From a virus: a DNA stretch of 40,019 nt. The stretch lies in IMG/VR virus record IMGVR_UViG_3300034072_000784, positions 1 to 40,019 of that record; one strand, written 5' to 3'. The notes beneath the pieces are model-generated. The model saw nothing but the letters and a program-made list of their open reading frames with translations. It had not been told where the DNA came from and did not search any database. The stretch's first letter is position 1; every line of letters starts with the position of its first letter. Made by a program: the position numbers and the translations under genes. This document shows, piece after piece, positions 3,461 to 30,469 of the stretch.

Positions 3461-5176
3461 ATGGTAACGATCAATCTCCCGCCCCTGCCTATCAACCCGT
3501 TGGGCAACGCTGATACGGTAGCAGCCTTGCGCGCCATTCCTAGCGCAAATCTGGAGAACAACCAAGCCGTCGCTGTGGCTGGGAACATCTCGTCCGGTGA
3601 CGGCGAGGGCGGTATTTATATTTGGTCAGAACTGACGACTACCGCAGACAATGGCACGACGATCATTAAGCCGACTGACCGTCCGCCGCTTGAGGCTGGC
3701 CGCTGGATACTCGTATCCGGTGGTGTCGCGGGCGGCTTCTATGGCCCATCCGCACAGGAGTTTGTCGCGACAGAGGGGCAAACCGACTTTGTTATGCCTT
3801 TCGATCTTGTCACGACGCCGGTTGTATTTGTGAATGGCACAAGGCAGGCATCCGCTGATTTCACCTATTCCGGGGACACATTGACACTTGTCACCCCCGC
3901 GAACGACAGCGATATTGTCACCATACTGGCGGCAGATGACGCTTTATTGCCCTATACCACCATAGACCGGGTTTCTGGCCTGCAAGCTGCGCTGGATAGC
4001 AAGGCAACGCCCGCCTATATCAGCGGCGTTCTTGGGTCGCGCCGGGCCAATGTGCTTGATATTGCGGATTGGGACAAGACCGGCACAAATGATATGGCGT
4101 CCAGTTATCAGGCACTGGTAATTGAAGCCGCAGAGGCAGGCGTCCCGCTAGATTGCGTGGCTGGCAAGGCTCTTCTTGGATCAACAATTACGTTGCCAGG
4201 CGGACATGTGTTTGAGGGCGTAAATAGTGGCGCAATTTTTATTGATCCCACGAAAGCATCATCATTTCTGATTGCGCATAGCGGAAAGGGCTTTATTCGC
4301 AGCGGCGGCAGTAATGCGCCTGTCTCGATCACGAACCAGGTCACGGTCCGCAACCAGCCGACACCTGTCACCAGCGTTCCCTATGTCCCGAACGACCACG
4401 ACTTTGATTATTATTTCGCTGATATCTCCGACCTGAAAATGTCTCGCATCCTTACGCTAAATGCTACGCGCGGCATATACTTCAACGGCGGTCGCAACAA
4501 TATTCATGAGTGGGGAGGCCAGTGCTTCAAGACAGGGCTTCAAGTTGATTGGTCATATGATACTTGCGATATTCAAAGCATACATCTCTGGCCATATTGG
4601 AACCAATCAGAAGAAGTAAAAGAATATATGCAGGATAATCTAACCTCATTCCTGCTTAAAAGGGTTGATAATTCATTCTTCAACAGGATTTTTAGCATTT
4701 GGCACAGATATGGATTTTATATCGATTGGTTTGCGGGTGATGGTCCGACTAAGCCAGCGGGTACCACTTACAAACTGAAACTGTGTCAGGCGGACCTTGA
4801 TATCGGTGATTATCCATATTGGGTTGCGGCAGCAGCAGATGGCCACACGGCGAAATTCTCTCAGGTCACAGCGCAGGCCCGTGACGAGATTATCGCTTCG
4901 TCGCTGCTGACGGTCAACGGCCCTAATTGTCGCATCACTGGCGAGTTTGATGGAGCAGGAAGTGGTGGCAATGTCATCCTATGCACGGCGACGAGCGCTG
5001 GTGGCTTCCTTGATTTGGTCGCGAGTGGAAATAACTGGAATAGAACGGCAACCGGCTTCCCTGCTGTGGAGGTGGAGACTGGTGGAGCGCATGTTGACCT
5101 TTTGCCGGGATCGCGCTTTACCAACGGAAACGGCGGCGCGGTTTCGTCCGGCGATGTAACTGTATGGATACCTTGA
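3461..5176 (+). CDS. tailspike / tail fibre with probable beta-helix (pectate-lyase-like) domain
   Basis: 571-aa ORF downstream of the ejection genes. Sequence character is typical of depolymerase-type tailspikes. Fold not verified. Confidence 0.7.
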   Translation: MVTINLPPLPINPLGNADTVAALRAIPSANLENNQAVAVAGNISSGDGEGGIYIWSELTTTADNGTTIIKPTDRPPLEAGRWILVSGGVAGGFYGPSAQEFVATEGQTDFVMPFDLVTTPVVFVNGTRQASADFTYSGDTLTLVTPANDSDIVTILAADDALLPYTTIDRVSGLQAALDSKATPAYISGVLGSRRANVLDIADWDKTGTNDMASSYQALVIEAAEAGVPLDCVAGKALLGSTITLPGGHVFEGVNSGAIFIDPTKASSFLIAHSGKGFIRSGGSNAPVSITNQVTVRNQPTPVTSVPYVPNDHDFDYYFADISDLKMSRILTLNATRGIYFNGGRNNIHEWGGQCFKTGLQVDWSYDTCDIQSIHLWPYWNQSEEVKEYMQDNLTSFLLKRVDNSFFNRIFSIWHRYGFYIDWFAGDGPTKPAGTTYKLKLCQADLDIGDYPYWVAAAADGHTAKFSQVTAQARDEIIASSLLTVNGPNCRITGEFDGAGSGGNVILCTATSAGGFLDLVASGNNWNRTATGFPAVEVETGGAHVDLLPGSRFTNGNGGAVSSGDVTVWIP

Positions 5177-5177
5177 T

Positions 5178-6389
5178 ATGACCCGTTCAAGAGACGCATC
5201 ACGGCTTGTTCCCGATGGGGCGGATATCATACCTTTCCGCGACGGCGTGCTTTCCGACAAGCTCGGGCAAACCCGCGCCGTCGAGGATTATGCCAATCAG
5301 GCTGATCCGTTTGTAGCGCTGGATGCGGCTACATCGGCCTATGAGCAGATGTTCTTCACGGGCCAAAGTTATACGCCCGAGACACGCCTGTTCAGCCCTG
5401 ACAAACTGCTTACGGGGAGCGGAACGACTTTCACAGCCAATGTCCCCGCTGGACTGACCGATAACCCGGCGAAAAGCGGCCTATGGCACGCTATGTATAT
5501 GGCGGATGATGGAGACGCCGAACTTGGGAGCGCGAACCAGAACGCGGTGTTCGTGTCTGCCTATATGGCCCCGACCGACAGCCTTGCACCTTACCAGAAA
5601 AACGGGGGGCTTTTTAAGATCAGGTCCGCCGACCCTTCCACGGGCTCCACGATCTACCGAGATGCCGTTGCCATGGAGGCGCAGGCCGATGCTGTCGCTG
5701 GCAATATGTTTGCCCGCCTGTTTGGCGCGCACAGCCGCGTTGCCTTCGTAACGGGCAGTGATGGCTATACGCCCGGCATTGAGAGTGAAATCTATAACGA
5801 GGGTGAGGATCAGCCCTTAATTAACCAAACGAATAGCAAGCACGCCTTTCATGGCGTAGCTTCACACGGTCTTGTCACGGCAGGCTTGAAGCTGACGGGC
5901 GTAAATGGCGGCACCTTCCAGCATGGCGTCTATGCGGACCCGGAATCCCTCGCCTCCAACTTCCTGCTGCTGCGTGACGTTTTTTCGGTGAACGCTGCCG
6001 GAACCGTGGCGTCTGCTACCGGCTATATGCCGTTAGTTAACAACGTGGCCACGCTTGGCGCTGGCGCGACACGGTTTAAGTATTCTTATGCCAATGAGAT
6101 TTCCGCAGTTTACAGAATGACCAGCGGAAGCTCGTACGACGTCACTGATAATGACAAGACGATTGTGGTAAACAAAGCAACAGGCAGTGGCACGTTTGTT
6201 GCGCTACCTCCTTCGCCAGTCACAGGGCGAACGATCATCGTAAAGGACGGTAAGGGCGATGCGGCAACTAATCCTATAACCGTGCTACCAACGTCTGGGA
6301 ACATTGATGGTGCTGCCAATTATGTTATATCTGTCAACCGTGCTAGCGCTACATTCCAGTACGACGGCACTGAATGGGTAGTTCTATAA
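5178..6389 (+). CDS. tail fibre protein
   Basis: 403-aa ORF starting 2 nt after the upstream stop. The C-terminal module (VVNKATGSGTFVALPPSP..IIVKDGKGDA..ITV..IDG) is a type I recall from phage fibre C-termini. Confidence 0.65.
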   Translation: MTRSRDASRLVPDGADIIPFRDGVLSDKLGQTRAVEDYANQADPFVALDAATSAYEQMFFTGQSYTPETRLFSPDKLLTGSGTTFTANVPAGLTDNPAKSGLWHAMYMADDGDAELGSANQNAVFVSAYMAPTDSLAPYQKNGGLFKIRSADPSTGSTIYRDAVAMEAQADAVAGNMFARLFGAHSRVAFVTGSDGYTPGIESEIYNEGEDQPLINQTNSKHAFHGVASHGLVTAGLKLTGVNGGTFQHGVYADPESLASNFLLLRDVFSVNAAGTVASATGYMPLVNNVATLGAGATRFKYSYANEISAVYRMTSGSSYDVTDNDKTIVVNKATGSGTFVALPPSPVTGRTIIVKDGKGDAATNPITVLPTSGNIDGAANYVISVNRASATFQYDGTEWVVL

Positions 6390-6638: not shown

Positions 6639-7119
6639 CCTAATACCATATATCCACACACTAGCTGGTGTGGCAGTTCTCTGCGTTGTGACATGGGCGT
6701 TTCTGCGTCCATGCTCCATCCTGCGCTGCCTCGCCGCCGTGGTTGCTGTATGGATCACTGGTTACATATATGGCGACCTAACAGGCGATTACACGCACTG
6801 GCAGTTCAATATCCTGACTGACGCGCTCGCCGCATGGATCATTCTTCGCCATCCTGCCGGAAAGGTGCAGTCCGCCCTTGGTGGCACGTTCGCGGTCCAG
6901 ATCGCGATGCACTCCGCTTATGGCGCAAGAGAATTGTGGAGCAAGGCTGACCCGGTTGCATATTACGAGATGCTGACAATCGTTGCCTACGCGCAACTCG
7001 CTATCATGGGGTTATGGTGTGGGGGACTATGGGGGCGCGCTGCTATTGATTGGTGGAGGCATCGTCATCGCGCGATGGATCGTCGGAAGGGCGCTCAAGG
7101 TGTGGGGCGCTTCGGATGA
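6604..7119 (+). CDS. multi-pass membrane protein, holin candidate
   Basis: It has four to five hydrophobic segments and a highly basic C-terminus (RHRHRAMDRRKG), and sits just upstream of the endolysin. Start is uncertain (GTG 6604 or GTG 6631). Confidence 0.6.
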   Translation: MARKSQRTSVLDLIPYIHTLAGVAVLCVVTWAFLRPCSILRCLAAVVAVWITGYIYGDLTGDYTHWQFNILTDALAAWIILRHPAGKVQSALGGTFAVQIAMHSAYGARELWSKADPVAYYEMLTIVAYAQLAIMGLWCGGLWGRAAIDWWRHRHRAMDRRKGAQGVGRFG

Positions 7120-7322
7120 GCGGTCCGCCGAGTGAATGGTTTACGCCGGGGACCATATTGGGGGTGATCGGCCTTATCGCGGCTGGGGGCGCTGCGTATA
7201 GCCGGTTTGACGGACGGGTCAGTGTTGCTGAGGTGCAAAACGCGGCGCTTGAGAAGCGACTAGACCGTTTGGAAACGAAGCTGGATTACCTTGTCGGTCA
7301 GGTAGCAAAGGGTGACAAATGA
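7116..7322 (+). CDS. single-pass membrane protein with coiled-coil tail (lysis accessory)
   Basis: ATGA overlap with the upstream stop. It has one TM segment (ILGVIGLIAAGGAAY) followed by a heptad-like helix. Confidence 0.6.
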   Translation: MSGPPSEWFTPGTILGVIGLIAAGGAAYSRFDGRVSVAEVQNAALEKRLDRLETKLDYLVGQVAKGDK

Positions 7323-7918
7323 CGATTGACGTCAAAAAGCTGCAAGCAAGCCTTGGCGTTTCTGCCGATGGGATCATTGGTCCCGGTACGCTCCGGGCGC
7401 TTTTCGAGCGCATGGGCGCGGCAACCAGCATGGCTGTTGAGCTTGGTATTGCTGCCAACGTGCATTTCCCTGCCTATGGCATTCTCGATAACCCCTATCG
7501 CCTTGCTCATTTCATGGCCCAGGTTGCGCATGAAAGTGGCGGATTTCGCTACATGGAGGAGATATGGGGGCCAACAGATGCGCAGAAGCGCTACGAAGGC
7601 CGCGCGGACCTTGGCAACACGGTCAAGGGTGACGGCTTCCTGTTCAAGGGGCGTGGGCCAATTCAGATAACCGGACGGTCAAACTACAACAAATATGGCC
7701 GCCTGATCGGGCTTTGGCTTACCGACAAGCCGACGCTTGCCGCCATTCCCGCTATAGGGCTTCATCTGGCCTGCGAATATTGGAAACAAAACGGATTGAA
7801 CGGACTGGCTGGCAATGATGACATTGTGGCCATCACGAAGCGCATAAACGGGGGTGTTAACGGCTTGGAAGACCGCAAAGCCCAGCTGGCAAAGATGAAG
7901 GGGCTTTTGGGGATATGA
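7319..7918 (+). CDS. endolysin: peptidoglycan-binding domain + glycoside hydrolase family 19-like catalytic domain
   Basis: The N-terminus (LGVSADGIIGPGTLRAL) resembles a PG_binding_1-type domain. HFMAQVAHESGGFRYMEE and FKGRGPIQITGRSNY match GH19 endolysin signatures. Confidence 0.9.
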   Translation: MTIDVKKLQASLGVSADGIIGPGTLRALFERMGAATSMAVELGIAANVHFPAYGILDNPYRLAHFMAQVAHESGGFRYMEEIWGPTDAQKRYEGRADLGNTVKGDGFLFKGRGPIQITGRSNYNKYGRLIGLWLTDKPTLAAIPAIGLHLACEYWKQNGLNGLAGNDDIVAITKRINGGVNGLEDRKAQLAKMKGLLGI

Positions 7919-8175
7919 AGCCTTGGTGGGTTCCCGATGCGCGCGGCGCTATTGGCATTGGCGTCTATCTGCTTGTGATGATGGTTTTTGCGCTGATGGC
8001 GTGGAAATCCGAACTAAGGCAGGATGAATTTTTCAAGACCGTATCAACCCTGATCGTCGGGGCATTCATCAAGGATGTTGTAGCTTGGGCCTTTAGCGCG
8101 ACAAAAGGCGGTGGCGAGCTTGCAGAGCGCAACGCGGCACTTGTGAAGCAAAAGGTCGAGGAGCAAAACCCATGA
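7915..8175 (+). CDS. two-TM membrane protein (holin/antiholin candidate)
   Basis: ATGA overlap with the endolysin stop. It has two hydrophobic segments and a charged C-terminus. Confidence 0.65.
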   Translation: MKPWWVPDARGAIGIGVYLLVMMVFALMAWKSELRQDEFFKTVSTLIVGAFIKDVVAWAFSATKGGGELAERNAALVKQKVEEQNP

Positions 8176-8462
8176 CAAAAATTCATGTCATAGACACGGA
8201 ATATGAGCATGGCAGTTATCTCGCCATGGCCGCGAGGTCGGGCCGCATCCTCGCGGAAATGTCGCAGGATGGTTCTGAATTGATCGGCCATGTCTCAATC
8301 GGCATTTATAGCGACGGCTCTTATAGCTGCGGCTTCAAGATGCCAGACGATCAACCATTCATGGGACCAACCCTATTCTGCGCGTTCATCAAGGAGGTGA
8401 TCGAGCGCGAAATGACAGGGAAGCTGGCCGCCGACGATTATGCCAAGGAGTTTCTTCTGTGA
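8172..8462 (+). CDS. hypothetical protein (96 aa)
   Basis: ATGA-coupled ORF inside the lysis cassette. It appears soluble. Confidence 0.6.
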   Translation: MTKIHVIDTEYEHGSYLAMAARSGRILAEMSQDGSELIGHVSIGIYSDGSYSCGFKMPDDQPFMGPTLFCAFIKEVIEREMTGKLAADDYAKEFLL

Positions 8463-8603: not shown

Positions 8604-8846
8604 ATGTTGACCGTACTGCATCGCAAGCCTGATGGTTCCGAACGTATTTTCGAAGCCGAAAGTGTGACGCGCTTTCCGCCAGAGGGCGAGGAAAGCATTC
8701 CAGCGATGGGTAAAGTTGTGGCGCTTTTGGCCGATGGCGGCGATAGCCCGTCCAGTTGCGCAGAGCTATCTATCGCTCAGCCATTCGGCGCTGTCTTTGT
8801 GATGAACAGGTTTGGTGTAACTGTGGCTAGCTACAGGGGCGCATAA
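8604..8846 (+). CDS. hypothetical protein (80 aa)
   Basis: GAAGGAGAAG lies shortly upstream of the ATG. Confidence 0.6.
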   Translation: MLTVLHRKPDGSERIFEAESVTRFPPEGEESIPAMGKVVALLADGGDSPSSCAELSIAQPFGAVFVMNRFGVTVASYRGA

Positions 8847-8848
8847 CC

Positions 8849-9202
8849 ATGACGGCCCTCATAGCAGCATGGTCCGTTGTGAGGGCCAACTGGAAACTGG
8901 TGGCGGGTATCGCGCTCGGAGCGTTCCTCTGCTTTCCCCTCGCATATTGTCAGGGAAAGCGAGACGCGAAGATAGTCGGTGCCGCGAAGCTGGAGGCCGC
9001 ATCAGCCAAGGTCGAGCGGGCAGCGACACAAGCCGAACTGGCCGCTACGGTTGCTGATGCCATGCGCCGCGCTCAAACTAGGGAAGAAACCGATGAATTG
9101 CGAACGATCATCCAGGAAGCGCCTGCGGGCGATAATGCTGGCCCTGCCGTGTCTGCCGTTTTAAATAAGCTTCGATCGCGTCATCGGTCAAAATCTGAAT
9201 AA
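8849..9202 (+). CDS. i-spanin (Rz-like) candidate
   Basis: It has an N-terminal TM segment (WKLVAGIALGAFLCFPLAY) followed by an Ala/Glu/Arg-rich coiled coil. The last ~30 codons overlap the 3' end of the antisense HNH gene. Confidence 0.6.
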   Translation: MTALIAAWSVVRANWKLVAGIALGAFLCFPLAYCQGKRDAKIVGAAKLEAASAKVERAATQAELAATVADAMRRAQTREETDELRTIIQEAPAGDNAGPAVSAVLNKLRSRHRSKSE

Positions 9203-9767
9203 GTTCATGGGATAGCCTATTCCCGTGGTTAGGGTGAAACCCGAATTTTATTTCGGCCTCTTTTCTAGCCCTGACTGCTGCCGTTATGCTCTTGTGCTCA
9301 CCAAGGTAGTAGTTCTTATTTTTGTAAGTTATTTGGGCTACCCACTTCCCTAGCCTGTTTTGATACACGCCAGTAAATCCAGACTTATTATTCGAGAAAA
9401 GCCCGAGGTTCAGATTGTTATCTTCCGCGCACACCTCTCGCAAATTCTCGATCCTATTATCATGTCTGATGCCGTTGATATGATCGATCATATTCAATGG
9501 CCATTTGTTGTGAACCATTGCCCATGCTATCCAGTGCCCCTTATACTTGATACCGCAGATTTTGCCTGACCTGTATCCAGAGCCATTAATTGAAAAAACC
9601 TGCTTGCCGACATTTTTGGCATTCCACGTAGCAGCCTGAGCCTCTGCGGCGGGGTGTGGAGTTTGGAACATAGTTATGCTACGCTCCTTCCATAGCATTT
9701 CTCCAGTTTCTGGATCATATGTCAGGAGTTCGCGGATAAATGAAGGGGAATGTAATTCACGGCTCAT
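9108..9767 (-). CDS. HNH + AP2-domain homing endonuclease
   Basis: It contains IDHINGIRHDNRIENLREV..EDNNLN (HNH_3-type) followed by GFTGVYQNRLGKWVAQITYKNKNYYLGEH (AP2 DNA-binding). The gene is AT-rich, about 40-48% GC in the lines I counted. Start taken at ATG 9767. Confidence 0.85.
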   Translation of the reverse strand: MSRELHSPSFIRELLTYDPETGEMLWKERSITMFQTPHPAAEAQAATWNAKNVGKQVFSINGSGYRSGKICGIKYKGHWIAWAMVHNKWPLNMIDHINGIRHDNRIENLREVCAEDNNLNLGLFSNNKSGFTGVYQNRLGKWVAQITYKNKNYYLGEHKSITAAVRARKEAEIKFGFHPNHGNRLSHELIQILTDDAIEAYLKRQTRQGQHYRPQALPG

Positions 9768-9790
9768 GGCGCGGTACCTTCGCGTTATGT
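9150..9790 (-). mobile_element. free-standing homing-endonuclease cassette (approximate borders)
   Basis: An AT-rich block on the opposite strand to the surrounding late operon, located between the spanin candidates. Borders were estimated by eye from the composition change. Confidence 0.5.
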
Positions 9791-10060
9791 GTGGCAGCGG
9801 CAGGCTCGAAATTGCCGCTGCCACTTATTAGCAAATCAGCACCCTTGTTGCTAGCGTCTTTTTTCTTGCCAAGTTGCGGGAAAGAGATCGTCGTGCAGCG
9901 CGTTCCCGTCCCTGAGAAATGGCTGACGTGCGCCGCTCAACCCAAAGCGCCTGACGAAGATACGGACAAGGCTGTCGCCACGTTCATCGTGGACCTGATC
10001 GAGGCTGGGGAGGACTGTCGGGCGACTGTGGCGGCAATCAAGGCGTGGAATAAGCAGTGA
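9740..10060 (+). CDS. o-spanin (Rz1-like) lipoprotein candidate
   Basis: It contains a signal-peptide-like stretch and lipobox (SAPLLLASFFLPSCG). The true start is probably internal (GTG 9791 or TTG 9812). It is the last gene before the late-operon terminator. Confidence 0.5.
   Translation: MKGNVIHGSWRGTFALCVAAAGSKLPLPLISKSAPLLLASFFLPSCGKEIVVQRVPVPEKWLTCAAQPKAPDEDTDKAVATFIVDLIEAGEDCRATVAAIKAWNKQ
9791..9824. promoter_or_regulatory. perfect 12-bp inverted repeat, 10-nt loop
   Basis: GTGGCAGCGGCA-ggctcgaaat-TGCCGCTGCCAC, followed on the + strand by TTATTAG. It lies at the right edge of the HNH cassette and covers candidate o-spanin starts. Confidence 0.6.
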
Positions 10061-10119: not shown

Positions 10120-10163
10120 CAGCCCCCGCTTGTAGCTATATGCTCGCGGGGGCTGTGTTTTAT
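10120..10163 (+). terminator. rho-independent terminator of the late operon
   Basis: 10-bp GC stem CAGCCCCCGC/GCGGGGGCTG with a 16-nt loop, followed by TGTTTTAT. It lies between convergent genes. Confidence 0.7.
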
Positions 10164-10165
10164 GG

Positions 10166-10402
10166 TCAATCTGGATCGCTTGCCAAATAATCGCCGCGTT
10201 CGATGGCATCAGCAACATGGCGCGGGTACCACTCATCTTCTGGCAAATCGCGCAGCCACGCAACGATCCGCTCCCGCTCTGTCGGCTGTGGGGTGGCGAG
10301 GAAATAGCGATGCTCTAACCCGGCGTGGGTAGCTTTCCACATCACCGCCTCCACCCCTTGCTGGCCGCCCGGTTCATGGCTGGGGGTGTTGTTGCTGGTC
10401 AT
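10166..10402 (-). CDS. hypothetical acidic protein (78 aa)
   Basis: It is the last ORF of the leftward accessory block. AAGGAAGGAGG lies upstream of the ATG. Confidence 0.65.
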   Translation of the reverse strand: MTSNNTPSHEPGGQQGVEAVMWKATHAGLEHRYFLATPQPTERERIVAWLRDLPEDEWYPRHVADAIERGDYLASDPD

Positions 10403-10917: not shown

Positions 10918-11138
10918 TCCACCTCCCAAGGCTCAAAGGCCCGCTGAACGTCATCATAAGCGGCGACATAAGCGCGCTCGACCGGAGCCATGGCTTCGAT
11001 CCAATAGCGGTAATGCTCATCCTCATGATAGCTAGCGCCAAGCGGGCCACCATGCGACGGCTGCAAAATCTCCTGCACAATGTCGGCAAGATCGCGGGTC
11101 GAGCATGACGCGAGAAATGCGTATATTTCGGGTTTCAT
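10914..11138 (-). CDS. hypothetical acidic protein (74 aa)
   Basis: ATGA overlap with the upstream gene. Confidence 0.6.
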   Translation of the reverse strand: MKPEIYAFLASCSTRDLADIVQEILQPSHGGPLGASYHEDEHYRYWIEAMAPVERAYVAAYDDVQRAFEPWEVE

Positions 11139-11860
11139 GCGGCCTCCAACAGTTCAATGAGTTTTTCCGCCTGACTGATACGAGCGGCGGCACGGGCGTC
11201 GGCACGGGCGGCGGCATAGGCGGCATCGGCGGCGGCATCGGCGGCACGGGCGGCGGCATAGGCGGCACGGGCGGCGGCATCGGCGGCACGGGCGGCGGCA
11301 TAGGCGGCACGGGCGGCGGCATAGGCGGCACGGGCGGCGGCATCGGCGGCACGGGCGGCGGCATAGGCGGCACGGGCGGCGGCATAGGCGGCATCGGCGG
11401 CGGCATCGGCGGCATCGGCGGCATCGGCGGGAACCTCTACCCCATTCGCTTTGTCAGAAACGATCTTTAGTGCAGGGGCACAAGAGGCTCGCACGTCATC
11501 GGTCCCATGTTCACGCAGCACGTCATCAATCAGCCAGTGAAGAAATTTCCACGATACCAGCGACAGGTCGGCACCGATGCGCGGGGCATTGATAACCGCC
11601 TGCGGAAAGTCCTTCGCCTTTTCGTTCGGCAGACCCTCGAAAATACCCTCCGCAATGCGCGTAAGCATGATCGGGAAACCCGTCAATTCCTGAACCGAAT
11701 TAACGCTATCGCTATGGGCAATGCAGCCGATAAAGCAGCCCTTTCCGTTTTCCCAATAGCGCCCCTGGATAATCTCGTCCGCTGCCGTATGCGCGTTGAC
11801 TTGCGCCCGCACCATTTCGGCAAGCGCCGGATCGTTGTTGAAAGCAGTGTATTTCATCAT
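11135..11860 (-). CDS. early protein with globular N-domain and C-terminal alanine heptad-repeat tail
   Basis: AAGGAGGGA SD lies upstream. The C-terminus reads (A-Y/D-A-A-A-R/D-A) about 12 times and is followed by ISQAEKLIELLEAA. Confidence 0.75.
   Translation of the reverse strand: MMKYTAFNNDPALAEMVRAQVNAHTAADEIIQGRYWENGKGCFIGCIAHSDSVNSVQELTGFPIMLTRIAEGIFEGLPNEKAKDFPQAVINAPRIGADLSLVSWKFLHWLIDDVLREHGTDDVRASCAPALKIVSDKANGVEVPADAADAADAAADAAYAAARAAYAAARAADAAARAAYAAARAAYAAARAADAAARAAYAAARAADAAADAAYAAARADARAAARISQAEKLIELLEAA
11183..11429. repeat. tandem 21-bp repeat (about 12 units, with 63-bp higher order)
   Basis: The + strand unit is GGCGGCATAGGCGGCACGGGC, with ATA/ATC and ACG/ATC variants. 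All six frames are open here. Confidence 0.9.
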
Positions 11861-29989: not shown

Positions 29990-30469
29990 ATGGCTGTTTA
30001 TGACATAGCATTAATTAAGCCAAAAACAATTGAGCGTTTTTGGTCTAGGGTGGATAAATCTGGAATAGGCGATTGCTGGGAATGGAAGGGGAGCAAAGAT
30101 ACATCCGGATACGGGCTTATAAAGGTCAGGTCAAAGCATTCAAAGGCACATAGGATTTCATTAGTGCTCCATGGTTTCCCAGCCGTGGACGGGATGCACG
30201 CATTGCACTCCTGCGACAACCCTGGATGCGTAAACCCCTCACATCTCAGGTGGGGCACAAGGCGCGACAATATGCGGGACCGCAGTGAGCGAGGGCGCGC
30301 TAATTTACCAAGGGGGCAAAACCACCACATGACCACCTTGACCGACGATAACGTCAGGGAAATTAGAATGTCTCACTTGAGTGGCGTTGATCTTGCAAGG
30401 AAATTCGGCGTCACACGGGCAACTATATGCGACATACGAAAGCGTAGAGTTTGGAACCATATTGCGTAA
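29990..30469 (+). CDS. HNH homing endonuclease with C-terminal HTH
   Basis: It contains CWEWKGSKDTSGYG...HSCDNPGCVNPSHLRWGTRRDNMRD (HNH_3-type) and a C-terminal HTH (DLARKFGVTRATICDIRKRRVW). GC is about 35% in the line I counted. Confidence 0.85.
   Translation: MAVYDIALIKPKTIERFWSRVDKSGIGDCWEWKGSKDTSGYGLIKVRSKHSKAHRISLVLHGFPAVDGMHALHSCDNPGCVNPSHLRWGTRRDNMRDRSERGRANLPRGQNHHMTTLTDDNVREIRMSHLSGVDLARKFGVTRATICDIRKRRVWNHIA

Follow-up and report, generated by a model that had tools for sequence, protein, structure and literature searches.

Homing insertions are known to give new ends to the genes in which they settle, as in the mobE-split nrdA gene of Aeromonas phage Aeh1 and in the endonuclease open reading frames (ORFs) of fungal mitochondria; in such cases a selfish nuclease lies in coding DNA, and host function is kept by sequence associated with the element. 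In the T5-like phages Shivani and phiR201, the spanin genes are ~700 base pairs (bp) apart with a GIY-YIG endonuclease between them, and in T5 they overlap by 70 bp; whether this reflects insertion or deletion was left open (Kongari et al., 2018, PMC6139136). Free-standing HNN-AP2 endonucleases have been reported in the Xanthomonas phages Xp10/Xop411/OP1 (group I; PMC2248197) and as the 'IPA-HNH' of ICP1 (PMC10448857). Here, we analysed the complete viral genome IMGVR_UViG_3300034072_000784 (40,019 bp with direct terminal repeats; this whole stretch is called the window below), in which an antisense gene for an HNH(HNN)-AP2 homing endonuclease lies between an i-spanin gene and an o-spanin gene. 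It is very probable that this cassette was inserted into an ancestral overlap of the two spanin genes and cut both of them, and that both reading frames are now completed by cassette sequence. Unlike the mobE/nrdA and fungal cases, one cassette would here have re-ended two overlapping genes that were cut at one point.

The event at this locus is independent of the T5-like one but of the same kind. Alignment of Shivani with DT571/2 revealed a 708-bp insert inside the spanin overlap, co-oriented with the spanins, and ~18 of 449 related records cover at least 80% of the query, which is consistent with their carrying the insert. In both systems, a ~700-bp insert with one endonuclease gene is found inside the ancestral overlap of a pair that otherwise overlaps, both gene ends are replaced by insert sequence, the i-spanin is altered at its extreme C-terminus only and the o-spanin in its signal sequence only, and most relatives have the empty site. 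On the other hand, the nuclease families are unrelated (GIY-YIG/phrog_681 in the Shivani type, HNH_3 plus AP2/phrog_99 here), and the Shivani-type gene is co-oriented with the spanins and overlaps both at its ends, whereas the present one is antisense. The Shivani-type cut lies 6 codons into the signal peptide and 6 o-spanin residues were replaced, whereas the whole n- and h-region is new here; likewise, 13 i-spanin residues were replaced there by a 7-residue tail unlike the old one, whereas the new tail mimics the old one here. Finally, the direction of change, open in the published account, is settled here by remnants ('ghosts') of both old gene ends and by guanine-cytosine (GC) content. Given this published precedent, our case is a further clean example and not a new kind of element. 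An original prediction had considered the 0.6-kilobase (kb) antisense spacer unusual; with a ~700-bp spacer on record in T5-like phages (Kongari et al., 2018, PMC6139136), it is less so. The same prediction proposed that a mobile homing endonuclease had inserted at the spanin junction, which is supported here with the site refined to the inside of the ancestral overlap, while the overlap itself with both genes cut, the ghosts of both ends and the tail mimicry had escaped it.

The insert and the ancestral spanin overlap

The features of the locus are as follows (positions in the window):

8849-9202, + strand: i-spanin gene as now read, 117 amino acids (from the ORF and its homologs)
9093-9164, + strand: o-spanin ghost, 23 codons of the ancestral N-terminus read in the +1 frame relative to the i-spanin
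9108-9767, - strand: HNH(HNN)-AP2 homing endonuclease ORF, 219 amino acids (from Pfam, PHROG and family comparison)
9111-9215, - strand: 35-residue C-terminal extension of the nuclease
9162-9865: the insert, 704 bp; its removal in silico restores both ancestral frames together
9162-9215: left arm of the insert; + strand, replacement i-spanin tail and stop; - strand, read-through of the nuclease ORF
9216-9767, - strand: family-homologous core of the nuclease
9267-9380, - strand: AP2-like domain
9414-9536, - strand: HNH_3 domain
9740-10060, + strand: o-spanin ORF as called, 106 amino acids (from PF23793, phrog_456 and homologs)
9768-9865: right arm of the insert; + strand, new o-spanin N-terminus; - strand, 5' leader of the nuclease
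9791-9824: perfect 12-bp inverted repeat with a loop of 10 nucleotides (nt), found by self-match in the right arm
9865-9915, + strand: i-spanin ghost, the ancestral tail of 16 codons with its stop, in the i-spanin frame within the o-spanin 5' region

The nuclease gene had been described as AT-rich, with a switch of composition near 9150-9160. Both statements agree with our measurements: GC is 0.41-0.46 across 9150-9600 compared with 0.55-0.64 on either side, and the switch was placed at 9161/9162, although the insert boundary is uncertain by ~1 nt because of a T run. The GC of the insert (0.462) is the minimum among all 704-bp segments of the genome (mean 0.562, standard deviation 0.033). The left arm has a GC of 0.39, and GC at third codon positions is 0.23 in the new i-spanin tail versus 0.61-0.72 in the native spanin parts; the GC of the right arm is 0.54.

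Ghosts of both ancestral gene ends were found at the edges of the insert. That of the o-spanin ends at a stop codon at the insert edge (9162-9164) and is identical at 22 of its 23 residues to the N-terminus of P0008, a natural o-spanin of 87 amino acids that comes from another assembly, and the ghost tail of the i-spanin closely matches the C-terminus of the natural i-spanin homolog P0003. When 9093-9161 and 9866-10060 were rejoined, the resulting 87-residue o-spanin matched P0008 end to end (85/87 identical). We regard P0008 as the probable product of the empty-site allele, and these matches are direct evidence for overlapped alleles that lack the endonuclease in nearly the same phage. A tail of the ancestral i-spanin with its end near 9190 was also considered and was rejected on the basis of the ghost tail at 9865-9915 and P0008.

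[quoted passage not shown] In all six, the o-spanin gene has its start in the +1 frame, at 68-95 nt ahead of the i-spanin stop, and no gene lies between, from which it follows that the ancestral architecture of the family is overlapped; it is seen in all relatives, down to 44-50% identity. All eight o-spanin homologs have 75-87 amino acids and short signal peptides of the family type. A comparison with cassette-free relatives had been recommended earlier, and it shows that the nuclease gene is absent at this place from all six of these loci and is not a resident gene. With the uninterrupted P0008, this amounts to a presence/absence polymorphism at a fixed site, the nearest empty allele being known as protein only. 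Conversely, assemblies of more than one source contain the filled allele: the sequence of the patched o-spanin is on record in JGI/IMG, Logan and ENA, on two contigs, and the patched i-spanin on a separate 16.4-kb Logan contig. Other scans gave no match, including an exact-pattern scan of IMG/VR for the rejoined junction, a scan of metagenomes with an o-spanin DNA pattern, and scans of GTDB genomes and of JGI metagenomes with an i-spanin profile.

The native part of the i-spanin gene covers 8849-9161, and its last 13 codons and stop (9161/9162-9202) are derived from the insert, close to the ~15 residues estimated before. The new tail, LNKLRSRHRSKSE, stands in for an ancestral tail of 16 residues. 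In a position-locked comparison, the two tails reach a BLOSUM62 score of 24 with 6 identities. Random DNA of insert composition attains this score at p ~1e-5 (~1 in 100,000 trials), and only 7 of 54,218 genomic 13-mers in six frames score as high, one of which is the ghost tail itself. The signature L-x-[KR]-L-R is found in i-spanin tails throughout the family, down to ~35% identity, whereas the nucleotide identity of the new tail to any family tail is near random. As far as these alignments tell, the new tail mimics the family tail at the protein level only. The convergent 3' overlap of 95 nt between the i-spanin and nuclease genes was confirmed (9108-9202). It had been explained by each ORF running on into the antisense of the other until a chance stop; this explanation stands for the nuclease, which continues for 17 codons, but not for the i-spanin, whose tail is not a chance product and mimics the family.

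In the overlaps of L015, L022, L024 and L025, the conserved K-L-R of the i-spanin and the S-C-G of the o-spanin lipobox are readings, in two frames, of one stretch of nine bases (9867-9875 in the window), and the hexamer CTGCGG is the sole strongly conserved DNA block near the insertion point. Since the new tail mimics K-L-R even though it has been freed from coding the lipobox, the basic tail appears to be conserved for the i-spanin itself and not as a mere by-product of the lipobox. Regarding the sister loci L017 and L016, which share their o-spanin, L017 has an extra gene for a 252-residue HNH endonuclease directly downstream (5540-6298; phrog_374, 6e-63). In this group of phages, endonuclease genes seem to be drawn to the end of the spanin locus.

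The i-spanin belongs to a small family without a Pfam or PHROG match; 41 homologs were found in a representative library, and there are closer ones with 58-75% identity. It has a hydrophobic N-terminal segment (residues 17-35, Kyte-Doolittle peak 1.82 over 19 residues) and lies downstream of a GH19 endolysin gene and a holin-like ORF with two transmembrane (TM) segments, and its relatives are always paired with a LysC-type gene. Another homolog, P0002, is near-identical to the product of 8849-9202 in the first two thirds and diverges sharply in the last third, which looks like a recombination boundary inside the i-spanin gene.

The lipobox ORF at 9740-10060 and the Rz-like ORF at 8849-9202, between which the nuclease had been placed, were both confirmed, and by homology both are best taken as members of spanin families, as had been proposed. 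The o-spanin matches PF23793 LysC (30.6 bits, cut-off 27) and phrog_456 'Rz-like spanin' (1.5e-10), and the Cys-Gly of the lipobox is invariant in 12 family members. These features and the +1 frame of the o-spanin in the relatives resemble the overlapped P2 LysB/LysC type, from which our pair differs in being no longer overlapped and in the i-spanin lacking a Pfam or PHROG family. A tblastn search with the native part of the o-spanin matched one Haematospirillum record. This native part consists of 9866-10060 only and begins 3 codons before the lipobox Cys (codon 9875-9877). By this comparison, the insert is also the source of the start codon and of all of the n- and h-region in the signal peptide. 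Candidate starts are ATG 9740, which has a good Shine-Dalgarno sequence (AGGAG) 11 nt upstream, GTG 9791, and TTG 9812, which would leave the typical 21 residues before the Cys. Depending on the start used, the two spanin genes are now 537-609 nt apart. The last 13 codons of the right arm (9827-9865) align in register with the signal peptides of the family, and the insert supplies a basic residue and a hydrophobic core with a Kyte-Doolittle value of 2.24, compared with 2.5 for the native one. The 12-bp inverted repeat in this arm forms the dominant hairpin in RNA folds of either strand; it was rejected as an intrinsic terminator, since a U run after the hairpin is absent on both strands.

The HNH-AP2 nuclease gene

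The - strand ORF of the nuclease extends over 9108-9824, and the ATG at 9767 is the start consistent with its family. The HNH and AP2 motifs noticed previously were recovered, the former as HNH_3 (PF13392) with 39.2 bits against a cut-off of 24.8, the latter as an AP2-like C-terminal half with 19.3 bits, which is under the Pfam AP2 cut-off of 33.3. The protein matches phrog_99 'HNH endonuclease' at 1.6e-58. Its family profile matches plant AP2 domains (2e-6 for 7wq5, and 3e-3) and the HNH homing endonuclease 1u3e (1.2e-4); such a profile is needed, as a phmmer search of PDB sequences with the single nuclease sequence gave no match. Several homologs carry PF00847. All residues invariant in the family (D114, H115, N127, N136 and N139, in the numbering of the family comparison) are retained, and there are no internal stops.

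This nuclease shares with other HNH-AP2 phage nucleases an N-terminal HNH_3 domain with the D-H...N...N pattern, a putative C-terminal AP2-like domain, a core of ~185 residues and a distribution scattered over different sites in many phage genomes, and the WP, DNR, NLRE and EN boxes of the Xanthomonas phage enzymes (PMC2248197) are also found in it. The family comprises 2552 phage records at many genomic sites, all below 60% identity. In contrast to these enzymes, the present one has a C-terminal run-on of 35 residues, because there is no stop after the core, and at most 56% identity to anything found. Because family members stop 1-3 residues past a conserved HG, the left arm of the insert lies beyond family homology. 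The run-on consists of 18 codons in this arm and 17 (9111-9161) antisense to native i-spanin DNA. A public call of this gene (P0016, 187 amino acids) begins 32 codons downstream of ATG 9767 and omits 9671-9767, and the N-terminal motif common to all homologs is therefore missing from it. Start calls at such loci appear to be prone to error.

The nuclease gene and the leftward early operon, whose end is 399 nt upstream of that gene, share one orientation, and the hairpin between this operon and the o-spanin gene has its U run on the + strand only. These two features make it plausible that the nuclease would be expressed by early read-through from that operon rather than from its own promoter, which would spare it a conflict with late transcription. 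Promoter-like matches within the AT-rich insert were considered as a nuclease promoter and dropped, since they are consensus matches only.

Readings of the insertion and its arms

The insertion point lies 3 codons upstream of the lipobox Cys and ~17 codons before the old i-spanin stop, and both genes were cut at one point because they overlap. As reconstructed from the ghosts, the i-spanin lost its tail to the insertion, the o-spanin lost its start and signal peptide, and the two genes, once an overlapped pair of the P2 LysB/LysC type, became separated. The left arm would then complete the i-spanin with 13 codons and a stop that mimic the basic tail of the family, and from the right arm the o-spanin would gain a start codon together with a new n- and h-region leading into the retained lipobox. 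We infer that both patched spanins still work. Such arms may have been retained by selection as part of the mobile unit, and they would leave neither an excision repeat nor an intact target site. The nuclease, if active, would during co-infection cut the genomes of relatives without the endonuclease, close to the conserved DNA that codes for the lipobox, and the cassette would be copied in by break repair. The locus offers a direction-resolved example in which one endonuclease insertion turns overlapped spanins into separated ones, and it implies that a selfish element may occupy two overlapping genes if it brings both substitute ends. Insertion into an overlapped pair seems about as secure as sequence comparison allows short of empty-site DNA.

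Several points weigh against this reading. The empty-site allele is known as proteins only (P0008 and P0003), the closest nuclease homolog is just 56% identical, and this very cassette was not seen at another site or in another genome background. No sigma-70-like promoter was found by a scan upstream of the nuclease start at 9767. The tail mimicry rests on 13 residues. The start of the o-spanin is ambiguous: ATG 9740 would give an unusually long signal peptide with 45 residues before the Cys, while the 12-bp hairpin covers GTG 9791 and abuts TTG 9812. Finally, neither arm resembles any spanin overlap at the nucleotide level: its local alignments with seven overlap regions were no better than shuffles (all p > 0.1).

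A broader proposal is that the cassette is a co-evolved self-patching unit, that the spanin overlap is a general preferred landing site for homing endonucleases, and that such landings are a main route of change in spanin architecture. We hold this only tentatively, as nearly as probable as its opposite. Arms that are recoded stand-ins for the overlap would travel with the nuclease and restore both lysis genes on arrival; at the same time they would erase the nuclease target, leave no repeat for excision and separate the spanins in one step. Nucleases of unrelated families, GIY-YIG in T5-like phages and HNH-AP2 here, have settled in one and the same niche.

Somewhat more doubtful, though still a serious possibility, is that the arms are true spanin ends from a diverged donor of lower GC in which this endonuclease already lay between separated spanins. 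In agreement with such a donor, the new tail has 7 of 12 residues in common with the L022 tail as well as the family-wide L-x-[KR]-L-R, and its K-L-R codons differ from the dual-coded block of the family only at i-spanin third positions, by changes that leave the other frame without its Cys and Gly codons. Moreover, 9827-9865 matches the register of the family's signal peptides and has ATT at the position of the relatives' ATG, and the spanin-like parts of both arms total ~80 nt, about one overlap length. However, the signal-peptide alignment carries little weight because signal peptides are of low complexity, the shuffle comparisons given above speak against a spanin origin of either arm, and no phage of the donor type was found in the collections scanned. 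A recent duplication of the phage's own overlap was also considered as the source of the arms and was dropped, as they have no nucleotide similarity to their own flanks or to the six relatives. By these comparisons, the arms may be either spanin ends brought in from another source, long diverged or recoded, or DNA of the cassette on which selection has acted.

It is unlikely that the insertion is real but the completed frames are accidental, so that one or both spanins are crippled and the phage either lyses its host without a working spanin or is defective. Any insert would yield a stop within 8-22 codons ~31% of the time; this frequency of chance stops and the unclear o-spanin start, partly buried in a strong hairpin, would fit this view, and 91 of 677 phage genomes were reported to lack a spanin candidate meeting the criteria used (Kongari et al., 2018, PMC6139136). 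Nevertheless, accident would have to account for a new tail that repeats the family signature (p ~1e-5) and for a right arm that gives a basic residue and a near-native hydrophobic core in signal-peptide register. In addition, the native parts of both spanin genes are intact and near-identical to the endonuclease-free allele, and the genome is complete with its terminal repeats.

The opposite direction, with separated spanins and the endonuclease as the ancestral state and a secondary overlap produced in the relatives by precise deletion, was left undecided for T5-like phages (Kongari et al., 2018, PMC6139136) but is very improbable here: the overlapped architecture occurs in every relative, the insert stands out by its composition, what remains here as ghosts is functional sequence in relatives, and two functional overlapping frames would have to arise at once. 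Even less credible is an assembly chimera, conceivable in that the record is an uncultivated viral genome from a metagenomic contig, given the recurrence of the patched spanins in the assembly sources listed above and the position of both junctions inside reading frames completed in a family-like manner.

Genome setting and other observations

The + strand from ~26 kb to the end of the record and on through 1-6.4 kb carries the terminase, portal, major head, connector and tail genes, and the lysis genes are also on this strand. The view that the late operon is entirely on the + strand except for the nuclease gene is broadly right; the other long - strand ORFs of this region are antisense to strongly matched + strand genes. 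The remaining features around the spanin locus are:

7050-7322, + strand: TM/coiled ORF at the start of the lysis block
7319-7918, + strand: GH19 endolysin
7915-8175, + strand: holin-like ORF with two TM segments
8172-8462 and 8604-8846, + strand: two small ORFs of unassigned function between the holin-like gene and the i-spanin
10120-10155, + strand only: GC-rich hairpin and U run between the o-spanin and the convergent leftward early genes

The hairpin at 10120-10155 is likely the terminator of the late operon; beyond it, the genes run leftward on the - strand, and the leftward early operon ends at 10166. The product of 8172-8462 is 91% identical to that of the ORF at the same place in L015, while the adjoining i-spanins are only ~50% identical, and L022 lacks both small ORFs. 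This pattern points to mosaic gene content within the lysis cassette. In a blastn search of the region against cultured phages, the GH19 endolysin was the sole match.

A second HNH_3 endonuclease gene was found at 29990-30469 (+ strand, 159 amino acids; phrog_59, 2.7e-29; GC 0.49). It lies, in the orientation of the late operon, between the portal gene and the genes for scaffold and major head, and may likewise encode a free-standing homing endonuclease. Apart from the insert itself, the sole stretch with a GC that low (~0.47) is at ~4081-4865, within a gene for a pectin-lyase-like tail fibre or tailspike (571 amino acids, 3461-5176). At the other extreme, GC rises up to 0.82 at 11135-11470, in a tandem-repeat tract; one of its strands reads as heptads rich in alanine, the other as Pro-Met-Pro repeats.

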